A stretch of DNA of 64,000 bases from NCBI GenBank assembly GCA_965216565.1, contig OZ244170.1, forward strand, positions 2,880,001 to 2,944,000, written 5' to 3'. Below, piece by piece: positions 44,979 to 51,828 of this stretch (its first letter is position 1; the number at the start of each line of letters is the position of its first letter). The position numbers and the translations under genes were made by a program. The notes beneath the pieces were generated by a model, which was not told the DNA's origin, searched no databases, and saw nothing but the letters and a program-made list of their open reading frames with translations. The DNA comes from Bythopirellula sp. Lineage in GTDB: Bacteria; Planctomycetota; Planctomycetia; Pirellulales; Lacipirellulaceae.

Positions 44979-47498
44979 TCACCGCGGCGGGTTGCCGGGA
45001 TTGAGGTAAGTAGACACCTGAAATGTGTCGGGCGAAATCACGAATGACGTCGCCCCGCAGTCGGAAGTATGTCGAACCTCAGCCCCAAGTGCCCGATAGC
45101 TCTCAGCGGTAAAGTCATCGCGACCGTTCGTGTTTCGACCGCTGACAACCACCCACTCCGGTGTGCACCAGGCAGCAAAGCCGGGCGGATCGCTACGCAC
45201 ACTGCCGTGATGAGGGGCAAGCAAAATATTGCAGTCCAACGCTGGTTCTGCCATCACAGCCTCGATCCCCGGCGATTCCAAGTCTCCGGGCAGCAGAATC
45301 GTTTGTCCTGCATAACGGATGCAAAGCATGATGCTGTTCGCATTGTCGCGACCTGCAACCCCAGTCCGGGGAGGATGCAAAACCTCAATCGAAACATCTG
45401 TCGATGCCGTGGCAAGATTGTCGTTCATCCAAACTTCTTCGATAGGTACGTCAGCGGCGACCAACGTCTCTTTCAAATAGTTGGGAGCCGTCAACTGACC
45501 TTGCGTGGCCCAAGGATCAAACATCAATGGAGAAACATACACGGTCTCGATGGGTACTCGGTCGAGAAGATCTGGGATGGCGTTGTAGTGGTCGATGTCG
45601 GCATGCGATAAAACCACGGCATCGATTCTAGAAATTCCCTGCGACCAAAGAAACGAAGCAATCGATCGGCTAGCCCCTTCGGGCGATCCCAAACTGCCTG
45701 CGTCGTACAGTAACGTCTGACCGCCGGGAAGTTCTACGACGACGCACGTCCCGTGACCAATTGCCAGAAAGGTGCATTGCAATTGCGACTTTTTCATGCG
45801 AAGTGAACTCGCACCAAACCCAACCGATATCCACATCGCGACGGCAGCCAGTTGCCACTTCCAATCGATACTACGATTGGCTAATAGCGCAATAATCCCA
45901 AGCAACGCGTATAACCCCAGCAACCACCAAGCTGCCGGACCGGCGGTGAAGAAGTGCCCAATCTCCCAACCCGCGGCGAACTCCACACACGACTCGGTGA
46001 CTGCCAAACAAAATGAAATTAAACTTCCCAACACGTACCCCACCGGAGGCAAAACCCAGCCGACAATGCAGAGAGCAAATTCAGCCACCAAGGCAATCGC
46101 CACCAGCAGCCAGATCATAGGAGTTAGCAACACGCTCACTGGCGCTGCCATGTGGAAGTGGTAGGCCACCAGCGGAGCGGTAACAAGCCAGATCACCAGG
46201 GAGATCAGAACAAGCTGAACGAACCAGGTCCGACACGATTCCAGCAACTTCTGCTGCCAAGGCTTATAAGTTTCAATCAAATCGGCCAACGGGTCGAACG
46301 TGTGACGACGCTCAGCAAACCCTAGAAACCAGGCAATTGCGGAGACGCATAGAAAACTTAATTGGGTGCCACCGCGGAATAGCTCGCCTGGATTGATCGC
46401 CAGCACAATCATTGCTGCGACCGCGATGAGGTTTGCTCGCGTGGACCGTCTCCCCAAGAATACCGAAGTCATCGCCACCAAGATCAAGATGGTGGCCCGC
46501 AGTACCGGTGGACGAGCGCCTACGATTAACGCATAAGCCACTATCAAAACCGTCGAGGCAGCCAATGCCGTCCGTGGCGCAAGAATTCCAGCCCGCACGA
46601 AAAGCCATAGTATCGTCGCCAGAAATCCCACGTGTAGGCCTGATACCACTAGCAAGTGCACGGTGCCAGTATGCAAAAACGAGGCGAACTTTTCTTCAGT
46701 CAGCCGCTCTCGCTGGCCTAACATCAGGGCCAGTGCCAGATCGCGCTGTTCGGCGTCGACATACTTTGTGATTTGATATTCGCACCAACGTGTAGCGCGA
46801 TCCAGAAAACTCGTTGGTTGAAACGCAGTGACCTGCTCCACGGTCACGCATTGGGGCATGCGGCAGAAGAGTTCGACAAAGCGTCCCGCACCGCGTTCTG
46901 CTTCGGCCCACTCATATTGGCCCGGGTTAATTGCCGGGCGAGGCCGGCCAAACTGGCCGAAGAGTTCGAGCTGATCGCCTCGCTGAATCTTCGCCAGCTT
47001 TCCTTCCACTCGCAGATTGCAACGGCCCGAGGTCCGAATCCAATCGCTACCATCGCGAACCGCGGTTAAGGAAACGGGGATCACACTCCGCGAACCCTCG
47101 GGCACAACCCTCAATGGGTTTGCCTTAGGTGCTGGTGTCCACTGAGCGCGACCCAGGGCAACCGCGCGCACACAAATGGGTTCTGAACGCGTTTCAGCAA
47201 ATCGCGCTAGATGGCTATCGCCCAAATAATTCCAGCACTCGTGATGCCATGCGCCGCTAAGCGCAGCAAATGAACCAAGCAAGAACCAAGCCGAGAGCCG
47301 AGGGGAGTTGCTACGCAACGAGAAATAAGTTGCCAGCACGCAAGACAAAGCTAGCGACCACCAACCGTAAAGCCCCACGCTTCCCAGCACCGAACCCACG
47401 TATCGATCTGCAACGATCCCAGTCATCATCGCCAACGCGACCCAAAGTAGCGGCCGATAAGTCGGCACTTGCAGGCAAGTCGTGGGAGCAGGTTGCAT
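44979..47498 (-). CDS. comEC: ComEC/Rec2 competence protein with C-terminal metallo-beta-lactamase domain
   Basis: HLLVVSGLHV, LSHADIDH, LPGD and PHHGS motifs. Confidence 0.9.
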   Translation of the reverse strand: MQPAPTTCLQVPTYRPLLWVALAMMTGIVADRYVGSVLGSVGLYGWWSLALSCVLATYFSLRSNSPRLSAWFLLGSFAALSGAWHHECWNYLGDSHLARFAETRSEPICVRAVALGRAQWTPAPKANPLRVVPEGSRSVIPVSLTAVRDGSDWIRTSGRCNLRVEGKLAKIQRGDQLELFGQFGRPRPAINPGQYEWAEAERGAGRFVELFCRMPQCVTVEQVTAFQPTSFLDRATRWCEYQITKYVDAEQRDLALALMLGQRERLTEEKFASFLHTGTVHLLVVSGLHVGFLATILWLFVRAGILAPRTALAASTVLIVAYALIVGARPPVLRATILILVAMTSVFLGRRSTRANLIAVAAMIVLAINPGELFRGGTQLSFLCVSAIAWFLGFAERRHTFDPLADLIETYKPWQQKLLESCRTWFVQLVLISLVIWLVTAPLVAYHFHMAAPVSVLLTPMIWLLVAIALVAEFALCIVGWVLPPVGYVLGSLISFCLAVTESCVEFAAGWEIGHFFTAGPAAWWLLGLYALLGIIALLANRSIDWKWQLAAVAMWISVGFGASSLRMKKSQLQCTFLAIGHGTCVVVELPGGQTLLYDAGSLGSPEGASRSIASFLWSQGISRIDAVVLSHADIDHYNAIPDLLDRVPIETVYVSPLMFDPWATQGQLTAPNYLKETLVAADVPIEEVWMNDNLATASTDVSIEVLHPPRTGVAGRDNANSIMLCIRYAGQTILLPGDLESPGIEAVMAEPALDCNILLAPHHGSVRSDPPGFAAWCTPEWVVVSGRNTNGRDDFTAESYRALGAEVRHTSDCGATSFVISPDTFQVSTYLNPGNPPR

Positions 47499-47663
47499 AG
47501 GCCGTTTGCATCCAGTGGGAACTCACATTTTCACTGCGGATGATTCTACCAGGCGGGCTTCGCCAGCGAAATCGGACGACTTGGCTTGAATTCGCGGGCG
47601 GCAAGGGAAACAATACGCCTTCTTCCCCGTCATCCCGCCTGCCATTCAGGAGAGTCACCCTCC

Positions 47664-49835
47664 ATGCGATCCACCACAGTCTATCAGCCCAGCCTGCAAC
47701 TACTTCTGGCAGCCCTGGCGACTTGTTTCACGCTTTCGCAACTCTCGCGTGCCGTGAGCGTTGCCTCCAATCCTTCAGCCACCGCGGATTCGTCGGAAAC
47801 CGCAAAGGAGCCTACCTTGATTCCCCGCAGCGTTCTCTTTGGCAATCCAGAAAAAGCTATGGCACGGATTAGCCCGAATGGTAAATGGCTCAGCTACCTG
47901 GCCCCCGTCGATGGCATTCTCAACGTTTGGGTGGGCCCACTTGATGCCCCAGACCAGGCCAAGCCCGTGACCAAGGATAAGGACCGAAACATCCAGGGCT
48001 ATCGCTGGGCGTACAACGGCGATCAAATTCTTTACAGTCAGGACAAGGAAGGCGACGAAAACTGGCACGTCTACGCCACGAACGTCGAGACGGGTGAAAC
48101 CACTGACCTGACGCCACTTGAAGGCATCCACGCTCGCATACAAGAAACAAGCCAAAAATTTCCCAACGAAATTCTGGTTGGCCTCAACGACCGCGAACCA
48201 CGCTTCCACGACATTTACCATGTGAATCTTGAGACTGGCGAGCGAAAGCTAGTGCAAGAAAATCCTGGCGTAGCAGCCTACGTGACCGACGACGATTTCA
48301 ACGTTCGGTTTGCCTTCAACTTCACACCTGACGGCGGGCAGGTGTTACTCAAACCGAAAGTTGAGGGCGAGACCGGCAAGGATGCCGAGTGGGATGAGTT
48401 CATCAAGGTTGGCCCCGAAGATGCGATGAACACCTCGCCGGCTGGCTTCGACAAGACCGGTCGCATTCTTTACCTGCAAGATAGTCGAGAGCGTGACACT
48501 AGCGGACTGTTCGCACTGAACCTCGACACTGGCGAGCAAACGCTCGTGGCAGAAGATCCCCGTGCCGATATTGGCGGTGCCATTACGCATCCCACCGAAA
48601 AAACGATCGAGGCGGTTAGCTTCACTTACTCCCGCACCGAATGGACCATTCTGGACGAATCCATTCGCGATGATCTCGACTACCTCAACTCCGTGGAAGA
48701 TGGCGAGCTGGTGGTCACTGGCCGCACGCTCGACGATTCGCTGTGGACCGTCGCCTTTGTTCTGGATGATGGCCCGCTGAAGTATTACGTCTACGACCGG
48801 AAAAATCGCCAAGCAAAATTCCTGTTCAGTAGCCGCGATGACTTGGACGACTACCAACTCGTGAAGATGCGTACGCCTGTGATTGACTCGCGGGATGGTC
48901 TCAATCTCGTGAGCTATTTGTCGCTGCCCCTCGACAGCGATGCCGATGGTGACGGGCGTCCCGACAAACCGCTACCCATGGTTCTCGATGTGCATGGCGG
49001 ACCGTGGGCTCGCGACGGTTGGGGATACAACTCCACGCACCAGTGGCTCGCCAATCGAGGCTATGCCGTGTTGAGCGTCAATTACCGTGGTTCGACCGGC
49101 TTTGGCAAGAATTTTGTCAATGCCGCCAATGCCGAGTGGTCTCGCAAGATGCACGACGATTTGATCGATGCCGTCAATTGGGCCGTGGAAGAAGGCATTG
49201 CTGACAAAGACAAGGTTGCCATCATGGGTGGTAGCTACGGCGGCTATGCCACGCTCGTCGGGCTGACGTTCACTCCTGATGTGTTTGCCTGCGGTGTCGA
49301 CATAGTTGGCCCTTCGAGTCTGGTGACGTTGATGGAGAACATTCCACCCTATTGGTATTCGTTCTTGCCCGTCATGAAAATTCGTGTTGGCGATGCCAGC
49401 ACCGAAGAAGGCCGTGCGGAACTTCTTAAGCGTTCCCCACTTTCATTGGTTGATAAGATCAAAAAGCCGCTCCTCATCGGCCAAGGTGCCAACGACCCGC
49501 GCGTGACGCAGCTCGAGGCGGACCAAATCGTCGAGGCGATGACCGCTAACAACATCCCCGTGACTTACGTGCTGTATCCCGACGAAGGGCATGGTTTTTC
49601 AGGCGAGCACAATCGCATGTCGTTTAATGCGGTGACCGAGGCTTTCCTGGCCGAGAACCTCGGCGGTCGTTTCCAGCCGGTGGGTAACGACTTTGAAGAG
49701 TCGAGCCTGTACATCCCCACCGGGGCGGACGACGTACCCGGCGTGGCAGACGCCCTTCCTGAGGGACGAGCGGAAATGCCACCCGTGGAAGAAGAGGCTG
49801 ACGAGAACGAAGCGGCCGCCGCGTCGCCTGAGTGA
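47664..49835 (+). CDS. S9-family (prolyl oligo/acylaminoacyl) peptidase, secreted
   Basis: VHGGPW, NYRGSTGFG, GGSYGG, GANDPRV and DEGHGF; signal peptide. Confidence 0.93.
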   Translation: MRSTTVYQPSLQLLLAALATCFTLSQLSRAVSVASNPSATADSSETAKEPTLIPRSVLFGNPEKAMARISPNGKWLSYLAPVDGILNVWVGPLDAPDQAKPVTKDKDRNIQGYRWAYNGDQILYSQDKEGDENWHVYATNVETGETTDLTPLEGIHARIQETSQKFPNEILVGLNDREPRFHDIYHVNLETGERKLVQENPGVAAYVTDDDFNVRFAFNFTPDGGQVLLKPKVEGETGKDAEWDEFIKVGPEDAMNTSPAGFDKTGRILYLQDSRERDTSGLFALNLDTGEQTLVAEDPRADIGGAITHPTEKTIEAVSFTYSRTEWTILDESIRDDLDYLNSVEDGELVVTGRTLDDSLWTVAFVLDDGPLKYYVYDRKNRQAKFLFSSRDDLDDYQLVKMRTPVIDSRDGLNLVSYLSLPLDSDADGDGRPDKPLPMVLDVHGGPWARDGWGYNSTHQWLANRGYAVLSVNYRGSTGFGKNFVNAANAEWSRKMHDDLIDAVNWAVEEGIADKDKVAIMGGSYGGYATLVGLTFTPDVFACGVDIVGPSSLVTLMENIPPYWYSFLPVMKIRVGDASTEEGRAELLKRSPLSLVDKIKKPLLIGQGANDPRVTQLEADQIVEAMTANNIPVTYVLYPDEGHGFSGEHNRMSFNAVTEAFLAENLGGRFQPVGNDFEESSLYIPTGADDVPGVADALPEGRAEMPPVEEEADENEAAAASPE

Positions 49836-49866
49836 ATGTGGTAGCAAGTCTTTTTTGGAATTATGC

Positions 49867-49895
49867 TTGTCAATCTCCACAATCGAGCCGACAAT
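49867..49895 (+). promoter_or_regulatory. Putative sigma70 promoter of the aroF leader
   Basis: TTGTCA (49867-49872)-17 nt-GACAAT (49890-49895). Confidence 0.6.
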
Positions 49896-49904
49896 GGAGG
49901 TGTA

Positions 49905-49988
49905 ATGCACGCGAATACTTTTAACTTCTGGTTTACGACCGCTCGCTACTTCTATTTTGGCAGTAGCGGGGCTGGAGGTTTTGCGTAG
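49905..49988 (+). CDS. Aromatic-amino-acid attenuator leader peptide MHANTFNFWFTTARYFYFGSSGAGGFA (27 aa)
   Basis: 6 Phe, 1 Trp and 2 Tyr codons in FNFWF and YFYF clusters; GGAGG 4 nt upstream; followed by a terminator and aroF. Confidence 0.82.
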   Translation: MHANTFNFWFTTARYFYFGSSGAGGFA

Positions 49989-50013
49989 GCGTTACTACAA
50001 ATCCTACAAAGCA

Positions 50014-50054
50014 AAGACCCCGAGCACCGCAATTGTGGTTCTCGGGGTTTTTTT
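50014..50054 (+). terminator. Intrinsic attenuator terminator upstream of aroF
   Basis: GACCCCGAG-C-ACCGC-AATT-GTGGT-T-CTCGGGG followed by T7. Confidence 0.85.
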
Positions 50055-50208
50055 GTTGGTGCATTGAGAACGAAAATAATGCGTTTCCACGTCCCCCTCC
50101 CCCGTTTTCGGGGGAGGAGTTAGGAGAGGGGGCTGTCAGTGTTGAGATAGCAGCCTTAGACAAACTTCGCCAATTAGGCATACAAACTAATCTACAGGAG
50201 TAAACAAA

Positions 50209-51225
50209 ATGATCATCGTCATGAAGCAAAACGCACCGACCGATGAGATCGACCACGTCGTCTCGAGCGTCAAGGAACTAGGGCTGAAACCAGTTATCAT
50301 CGAGGGCACCGAACGGACCGTCGTGGCAGTGGTGGGCGAAGAACGGGACGCCGGCATCATGGCCCTGGAAAGTAGCCCGGGCGTGGACGAAATCCTTCCG
50401 ATTGTCGCCCCCTACAAACTCGCGAGTAAAGAAGTCCGCCCCGAGCCCAGTACGGTCAAAGCGGGCAGCCTCACCGTGGGCAACGGCAAGATCGGTGTGA
50501 TTGCCGGGCCGTGCTCGGTAGAGAGCGAAGATCAACTGATGGAAACAGCTCACGCCGTCAAGAAAGCTGGTGCCACAGCACTCCGCGGCGGTGCGTTCAA
50601 GCCACGCACCAGCCCCTATAGTTTCCAAGGTTTAAAGGAAGAAGGTTTGAAACTACTGGCCGAGGCTCGCAATCAAACCGGACTGGCCGTAGTGACCGAA
50701 GTGGTGTCGCCCGACGATGTTGACTTGGTTTGCGAATATGCAGACGTCTTGCAAATTGGCGCACGCAATATGCAGAACTACCGCTTGCTGGAAGCGGTGG
50801 GCCGTTGCCCGAAGCCGGCACTTCTGAAACGTGGCCCCAGTGCCACCGTCGACGAGTGGCTGTTGGCAGCCGAGTACATCCTCGACGGAGGCAATCACAA
50901 CGTGATGCTCTGCGAGCGCGGCATTCGCACCTACGAGGCGCACACCCGGTTCACCTTGCCGCTGGCCTCGGTGCCCTACGTGCAACAAAAGACGCACCTA
51001 CCCATCGTCATCGACCCCAGCCACGGCACAGGCCACACCTACATGGTACCTGCGCTTTCACGGGCAGCGATTGCCGCTGGGTGCGACGGCCTCATCGTCG
51101 AAGTCCACCGCAATCCCGACAAAGCGATGAGCGACGGCTATCAATCGATGACGCACGATCAGTTCGAAGAGATGATGACCGGTTGCCAGAAGGTAGCGGC
51201 GGCGATGGATTGCGAGTTGGGATAG
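50209..51225 (+). CDS. aroF: 3-deoxy-7-phosphoheptulonate (DAHP) synthase, type I-beta with N-terminal regulatory domain
   Basis: [46 protein letters not shown] and SDG motifs; AGGAG SD. Confidence 0.95.
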
Positions 51226-51597
51226 CGGTGGGGAGTGATCGATAGTTGTTTGATAACCACAAAAAGCACAAGGAGGCACGAAAGAGTGTATGCAATGAAT
51301 CTCTTTTTGTGACTCTTTGTGTTCTTCGTGGCTATTGTTAGCAGGATTGGCTGAAGTTGGGTGGCAGCTACACTTGTCCGCAGTGGACGTCGCCACTTAG
51401 AAACTATATTCGGACACGTGTCGGTGTCGCTTGCGACAGGAGGCTCGCCCGGTTTGGCTCCGGTGCTTTGCACACGGCTAGTCGACCCAAAGTAATTACT
51501 CGCTTGGCTGCCTGATCGCCATCCGACTGTTCGGGCTACATGCGGGCATTCTCATAAACCAGCATTTTTCTCCATCGTTGTGTTAAGGGGAACATTA

Positions 51598-51828
51598 ATG
51601 GGTCGAATCACTGAAGTATTCATAATCGAAGAACTATGCCTGTTACATGGAATGTGCGTGCCCGAGTGTCCGGAAGTCTTCCGGATTCGGGACGGCGATT
51701 CATTTGCCTCTATTACCCCGAACGCCGAAAAGTACTTTGAGACCCTGGACGGAGACATTCGTTCAGCTATGGAGTGCTGCCCTATGTCATGCATCCAGGT
51801 TGTCGAAGTCGATGACTCAAGTCCTTAG
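51598..51828 (+). CDS. Single-cluster ferredoxin with CxxHxxC...CP motif
   Basis: CLLHGMCVPECPEVF ... AMECCPMSCI; purine-rich RBS ahead of ATG 51598. Confidence 0.75.
   Translation: MGRITEVFIIEELCLLHGMCVPECPEVFRIRDGDSFASITPNAEKYFETLDGDIRSAMECCPMSCIQVVEVDDSSP

Follow-up and report, generated by a model that had tools for sequence, protein, structure and literature searches.

DAHP synthase opens the pathway to the aromatic amino acids, and enzymes of its class I-beta type are feedback-inhibited by Tyr and Phe. The stretch of DNA analysed here, 64,000 nucleotides long and called the window throughout, carries a gene of this class, aroF, whose product scores above the cut-offs of PRK08673 and TIGR01361 in profile searches, has PF18152 as its N-terminal domain and finds its closest solved structure in 1rzm, aligned across residues 1–334; its nearest named relatives come from Bythopirellula sp. 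(77%) and Lacipirellula sp. (76%). An SD-like motif for aroF, AGGAG, lies at 50196–50200. The wider surroundings are ordinary, with a ComEC/Rec2-type competence gene (PF03772, PF00753) on the minus strand upstream (44979–47498) and a small ferredoxin-like ORF on the plus strand downstream (51580–51828). The features at and before aroF are collected in Table 1.

Table 1. Features of the aroF locus; positions are those of the window.
Feature	Coordinates	Strand	Basis or remark
S9 peptidase gene (PF00326)	47586–49835	+	Neighbour 5′ of the leader, outside the element
Promoter-like site: −35 TTGTCA (49867–49872), −10 GACAAT (49890–49895)	49867–49895	+	Motif score 9/12
Leader ORF (uORF), 27 codons	49905–49988	+	Control codons F6, F8-W9-F10, Y15-F16-Y17-F18
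Segment 1a, the F8-W9-F10 codons; with 49971–49979 forms the outer protector helix	49924–49932	+	Minimum-free-energy fold, pairing
Inner protector or pause hairpin 1b:2a (49942–49950 with 49962–49970)	49942–49970	+	Fold, covariation
Antiterminator: G-rich 49967–49989 with terminator 5′ arm and spacer 50003–50025	49967–50025	+	Two registers possible
Intrinsic terminator, GC stem and T7	50013–50054	+	Fold z −6.96, covariation
Dispersed palindromic repeat in the aroF 5′ UTR	50091–50134	none	14 further matches in the genome
aroF (class I-beta DAHP synthase; ferredoxin-like regulatory domain at the N terminus)	50209–51225	+	Profile matches

The positions given for the uORF, the terminator and aroF in a preliminary description of this DNA all match the sequence, and so does the uORF product, MHANTFNFWFTTARYFYFGSSGAGGFA, in which nine of 27 residues are aromatic. 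Its control codons, five for Phe, one for Trp and two for Tyr, fall into two clusters; a search of the peptide against NCBIfam found no match. An in-frame start at 49863, which would give an ORF of 41 amino acids, was rejected as lying 5′ of the −35 box. Also rejected, as a second regulatory element, was the hairpin between the terminator and aroF, a GC-rich, REP-like palindrome of ~43 nt that recurs elsewhere in the genome.

The promoter proposed in the preliminary description, TTGTCA and GACAAT with 17 nt between them, is by itself at chance level (two such sites found, 2.1 expected), but a TTG.. −35 element with an nAnAAT or nATACT −10 element stands at the same place in 31 of the 34 leaders of the family alignment. 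Among those 31, the distance from the −10 element to the ATG is 6 nt in 18 leaders, 7 nt in three, 9 nt in seven and 10 nt in three. This spacing predicts a transcription start at about 49902–49905 and a 5′ leader of 0–3 nt, which makes a leaderless or almost leaderless uORF probable; an SD-like motif precedes it in only 5/34 family leaders. GGAGG at 49896–49900 is unlikely to act as its Shine-Dalgarno sequence on transcripts from this promoter, since it lies 3′ of the −10 box and 5′ of the expected start, and could be used on read-through RNA from the peptidase gene. A near-leaderless uORF would have a precedent in Corynebacterium glutamicum ilvBNC, for which a title in the reference list of PMC4046766 speaks of leader-peptide formation without a ribosome-binding site.

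Conservation of the leader at orthologous loci

We defined a leader as an ORF of 12–45 codons with at least four F, W or Y codons in 14 and, 30–110 nt beyond the stop codon, a hairpin and U-tract. The rule gave 97 hits, of which 93 were kept as leaders after removal of a weak paralogue (L066), a repeat of one leader (L104, the same as L011) and two doubtful cases (L106 and L129). The preliminary description had predicted aromatic-rich uORFs in orthologous leaders, and we found a leader with terminator at 50 of 59 orthologous aroF loci in the order, a count that includes the present locus and, since related genomes are not independent, is to be read, like the other pass figures here, as a count and not a probability. 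Altogether 61 genomes were searched; two with gene fragments only (G002 and G021) were left out of the 59.

The controls point the same way. Just one of 29 paralogues (46–51% identity) passes the rule, and weakly. Across the genome background 61 of 3,500 crude gene starts pass; aroF ranks at the top and is alone in having eight aromatic residues in 14 codons. In the collection of named records 46/80 loci pass (two doubtful, one a duplicate, four with less than 300 nt upstream), the passing records including Pirellulales, Planctomycetales, Gemmataceae, Isosphaeraceae and Phycisphaerae. When the phylum was sampled evenly, 10/29 loci passed: nine of the 13 best-scoring and one weak case among the other 16. 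Outside the planctomycetes, F/W/Y-rich leaders with terminators also occur at class I-beta DAHP synthase genes of Thermodesulfovibrio, Ardenticatenaceae, Anaerolineae and one further bacterium (L162, L155, L164 and L159).

The nine orthologous loci that fail comprise two clear losses (L008 and L021), one contig end (L029), one disrupted leader (L054), one locus whose leader is visible by eye and whose U-tract is atypical (L046), and four with other upstream DNA. At both clear losses, in small assemblies of 4.0 and 2.8 Mb, neither leader nor intergenic region is left, the S9 peptidase frame continuing directly into the aroF start, an arrangement that suggests loss of attenuation and coupling of aroF to the peptidase gene.

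Several loci carry additional sequence before aroF. In L019 a gene for a four-helix-bundle protein (TIGR02436; L019:2621–3016, minus strand), with 12-nt repeats on its flanks, sits between terminator and aroF, and the attenuator is intact ~550 nt upstream of aroF. In L035 the same interval holds ~420 nt of long nested inverted repeats. L053 has a tRNA-like sequence, recognized by eye, ~330–270 nt upstream of aroF at the place expected for the leader, and in L045, where no leader was found, another ORF ends close upstream of aroF.

Protector, proposed antiterminator and terminator

Pairing and covariation were scored on an alignment of the 34 family leaders with 500 shuffles. The GC-rich terminator proposed earlier is borne out: the segment 50010–50058, overlooked by a simple terminator scan, folds at −27.8 kcal/mol (z −6.96; 0/200 shuffles as good), and its stem is 95.7% paired across the family with 21 double-change cells (0/500 shuffles). 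The hairpin 1b:2a likewise folds as had been claimed; alone it has a z of −2.2 (6/200 shuffles), and in the family it is 85.6% paired, with six of nine pairs double-changed and 15 double-change cells (0/500). The preliminary description had stopped at this inner hairpin and missed the outer helix over the F-W-F codons (49924–49932 with 49971–49979), which is 89.9% paired with three of nine pairs double-changed (8/500 shuffles); its covariation score is not significant (64/500). The entire leader folds with a z of −5.56.

The antiterminator is less clear-cut. The pairings proposed for it exist in this sequence, and the complementarity between antiterminator and terminator arm is kept in the family: the core CGGGG:CCCCG is 94% paired and invariant, without column covariation, with a small margin over shuffles and in an ambiguous register. 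The inner stem of the proposal, TTTGC-GTAGG with CCTAC..GCAAA, is not a conserved helix, pairing in register in 48% over the 34 sequences in a region that aligns poorly; folding finds a local stem of some kind there in most of the leaders inspected. Taken alone the proposed fragments are weak (z −0.9 and −2.1), and the register of lowest energy (−17.4 kcal/mol) differs from the one first proposed (−14.1 kcal/mol). Over 88 leaders, native duplexes of segment 2 with the terminator arm are 1.8 kcal/mol better than cross-species duplexes (0/10,000 permutations), a difference inflated by kinship.

Folding statistics rest on these 88 leaders, the 93 less five for which the wrong terminator arm had been picked (L007, L036, L044, L131 and L137). 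In our model the transcript ends before the 3′ arm of the terminator, and the ribosome is an unpaired block that extends 9–15 nt beyond the A site. In the leader studied here the terminator arm is predicted to be captured (0.74) for a ribosome as far along as G19–S21 and not at all (0) for one at the stop codon, which places all aromatic codons from F6 to F18 in the modelled permissive window. Across the 88, the median modelled pairing of the arm is 0.75 for a ribosome at the final aromatic codon against 0.15 at the stop; the drop exceeds 0.4 in 65/88, and the antiterminator collapses one to five codons beyond the last aromatic codon in 70/88. With shuffled spacers median arm pairing is 0.61 against the native 0.75, and 28/88 leaders stand clearly above their own shuffles. 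The model lets the antiterminator form without a ribosome as well (0.72–0.79, truncated transcript).

Of the two alternative folds, proposed in the preliminary description as mutually exclusive, equilibrium favours the terminator at every stall position after its 3′ arm has emerged, so that read-through must be kinetic. In this sequence the terminator has −23.1 and the full protector −19.2 kcal/mol, and inner hairpin plus antiterminator reach −29.4 against −42.3 kcal/mol for protector plus terminator. At the first decision point the modelled extent of terminator formation is 0.72–0.82 for a stall at W9 or F10 and 0.31–0.36 for one at F16 or F18. Of eight lengths of untranslated RNA folded from 49985 on, only one, 50030, has a lowest-energy fold that lacks the protector.

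The leader has an aromatic-enriched uORF, an intrinsic terminator and a protector lying over control codons, and in the model a suitable spacing of stall and stop sites. Its layout of protector, putative antiterminator and terminator, with the control codons in segment 1, is that of E. coli trpL, pheL and pheM; the preliminary description had assigned it to the trpL/pheL class. On the strength of conservation, covariation, modelled geometry and the paralogue control we hold, with high confidence, that a ribosome-mediated transcription attenuator resembling trpL and pheL precedes this class I-beta DAHP synthase gene, and very probably the speed of the ribosome on the leader switches on DAHP synthase here and in most relatives.

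Such an attenuator might work as follows. Polymerase would start 0–3 nt before the uORF AUG, and in the nascent RNA the two-part protector helix would bury the G-rich segment 49962–49979. When charged aromatic tRNAs are plentiful, the ribosome would reach the stop codon (49986–49988) and cover the G-rich segment, and the terminator would form, ending transcripts near 50054; were the uORF left untranslated, the protector would keep hold of the G-rich segment and the terminator would form too. A ribosome stalled on F-W-F or Y-F-Y-F would open the protector and free the G-rich segment to capture the 5′ arm of the terminator, and polymerase would then read on into aroF.

Amino acids that may be sensed and alternative roles

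The preliminary description had one leader integrating Phe, Trp and Tyr. Among the 93 leaders, F is present in all, Y in 89 and W in 85, with all three in 81; W is thus absent from eight and Y from four. F accounts for 15.3% of the residues in leaders (3.8% in the proteome), Y for 6.6% (2.5%) and W for 4.9% (1.5%). Counts of the triplets in frames 0, 1 and 2 (TGG 127/20/59, TAY 169/9/86, TTY 393/143/126) favour the reading frame in a comparison biased by the choice of leaders for in-frame F, W and Y. Both synonymous codons of F and of Y are in use across leaders.

While most leaders keep all three residues, only Phe is universal, and it is quite possible, if somewhat short of probable, that the same attenuator works in practice as a sensor of Phe, or of Phe and Tyr, with the Trp codon kept mainly because UGG pairs with GCCGG or GCUGG in the protector helix; this competes with the three-amino-acid claim alone. 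The single W codon here, beside five for F, lies inside helix 1a, where the CGA and CGG replacements found elsewhere keep part or all of the pairing; four of 23 leaders in the genus have no W, and the modelled stalls at W9 and F10 resist the terminator less than those at F16 and F18. The C. glutamicum aroR–aroF system, a leader-peptide attenuator of DAHP synthase with an F-Y-F motif, answers to Phe and not to Tyr in the available text of PMC11802643 and PMC4046766, and is given as controlled by Phe and Tyr in that of PMC7356990. Against a purely structural role for the Trp codon, UGG is kept in 27/34 family leaders although CGG would pair as well or better, which points to selection on Trp itself; the enrichment of W over the proteome, the two or three W codons found mid-cluster in many distant leaders, and a modelled permissive window that takes in every aromatic codon from F6 to F18 argue in the same direction. 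Phe-tRNA is then the surest signal, Tyr a likely one and Trp plausible, and whether all three are sensed together we put at about even odds.

We think it improbable that the leader acts chiefly in trans, as a small RNA or an aromatic peptide, or senses a general slowing of ribosomes, with amino-acid-specific attenuation secondary. Termination would leave a stable leader RNA of ~150 nt, the leader peptide ends in a conserved GAGG motif, and action in trans is published for a trp leader, rnTrpL/peTrpL of S. meliloti (available text of PMC7298713). The conservation of GAGG, however, is accounted for by the RNA pairing of GGGGCCGGAGG in the outer protector helix; length and order of the peptides vary widely, whereas aromatic content and distance to the switch are constant; and the leader always stands before a gene of the pathway that makes those very amino acids.

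It is very improbable indeed that the hairpin serves merely as terminator of the S9 peptidase gene, with an incidental uORF and an aroF promoter downstream, an arrangement that the preliminary description had named among its refutations: a search of the interval from the peptidase stop (49835) to the leader gave no terminator, so that the hairpin would stop peptidase read-through too, and 154 nt separate it from aroF here, but no S9 gene lies upstream of 79/93 leaders, the U-tract is at most 50 nt from the aroF start in 15/88 (minimum 26), where a promoter would scarcely fit if at all, no plus-strand promoter-like site was found in 50054–50209, and both uORF and promoter are conserved. With an S9 peptidase gene upstream in 14/93 only, the leader travels with aroF and not with the upstream gene.

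Reach of the control and known leaders

The genome encodes a second DAHP synthase, of class II (TIGR01358 above cut-off; L171, G000:C1 1168102–1169460), upstream of which an aromatic leader was sought and not found. The attenuator hence gates one of two DAHP synthase isoenzymes only, and control of entry into the shikimate pathway, as the preliminary description put it, is overstated. A search upstream of trpE, pheA and a second trpE/pabB-like gene found no leader, and neither TrpR nor a class I-alpha DAHP synthase was found in the genome, which is 94% complete. The lack of a detected TrpR and of leaders at trpE and pheA is the ground for a broader proposal, to which we give slightly less than an even chance: that a single, mostly leaderless uORF truly reads three inputs, the tRNAs of Phe, Tyr and Trp, and exerts the chief transcriptional control over planctomycete aromatic biosynthesis, and that the same design before class I-beta DAHP synthases in Planctomycetota, Chloroflexota and Thermodesulfovibrio forms a widespread attenuator family absent from Rfam.

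Elsewhere in the genome, a Leu-rich leader, MPLESLLSLLLLELSRLGT, with a terminator (−23 kcal/mol) precedes leuA (TIGR00973 above cut-off; L204, G000:C1 274700–276800, minus strand) and is likely a second attenuator. An Ile/Val-rich leader, MVSTIRPLIPDAICVDIIAIVIGRRP, also with a terminator, precedes the citramalate synthase gene cimA (TIGR00977 above cut-off; L205, G000:C1 5095800–5097900, minus strand) and is a candidate for an Ile attenuator of the citramalate pathway. With leaders and terminators at leuA and cimA as well, the organism seems to use attenuation at several committed steps.

Leaders that sense several amino acids are familiar from thrL and ilvL. Neshat et al. are said to have described the aroR–aroF attenuator of C. 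glutamicum in 2014. Like the leader studied here, aroR places an aromatic-codon peptide before a DAHP synthase gene; stalling on it raises transcription, as is predicted for the present leader. Judged by the motif in the available descriptions (F-Y-F, with no Trp), aroR differs from the present leader, whose control codons (five F, one W and two Y) form two clusters and whose downstream gene is of class I-beta. In Acholeplasma, the available text of PMC8632094 predicts uORFC-13-1, a uORF with intrinsic terminator found only upstream of aroF in 24 representatives; it belongs to another phylum and has a ribosome-binding site and a U-run coding for at least one Phe, whereas the uORF here is probably near-leaderless and has F, W and Y. 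Attenuators have been predicted before aroA-I-beta operons of Thermus thermophilus and others (Merino database, Table 7 of PMC1173090); these share the class I-beta gene downstream, and the available text describes no leader peptide and mentions no planctomycete. E. coli places its DAHP synthases under TyrR and TrpR (available text of PMC11802643).

The claim of novelty stands in part. In the open literature we found no report of a planctomycete attenuator, whereas C. glutamicum has a published and Acholeplasma a predicted aroF leader; subscription surveys (Gelfand/Lyubetsky), Neshat 2014 and supplements may hold a prediction. As far as their available text goes, PMC4833913 gives a statistical count of planctomycete leader genes with aroF unmentioned, and PMC2965389, checked by phylum name, and PMC2659441 contain no planctomycete case. 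No Rfam family matched at its gathering score, the best leader hit being Leu_leader (17.6 bits against 50, E 0.53), and no Trp or Phe leader matched up to E 10.

The mechanism is a textbook one, a DAHP-synthase leader was already known and the control reaches just one isoenzyme of the two, which makes the result moderately surprising to a specialist; the leader belongs to no Rfam family. The finding brings leader-peptide attenuation to a phylum in which we found none reported, and adds a small gene missing from annotation together with a cis-RNA family from which a model can be built. C. glutamicum aroR, with a Tyr codon and reportedly no response to Tyr (available text of PMC11802643), raises the question of how one leader weighs several amino acids, and that question can be put to the test with leaders in which Trp or Tyr codons are naturally present or missing.
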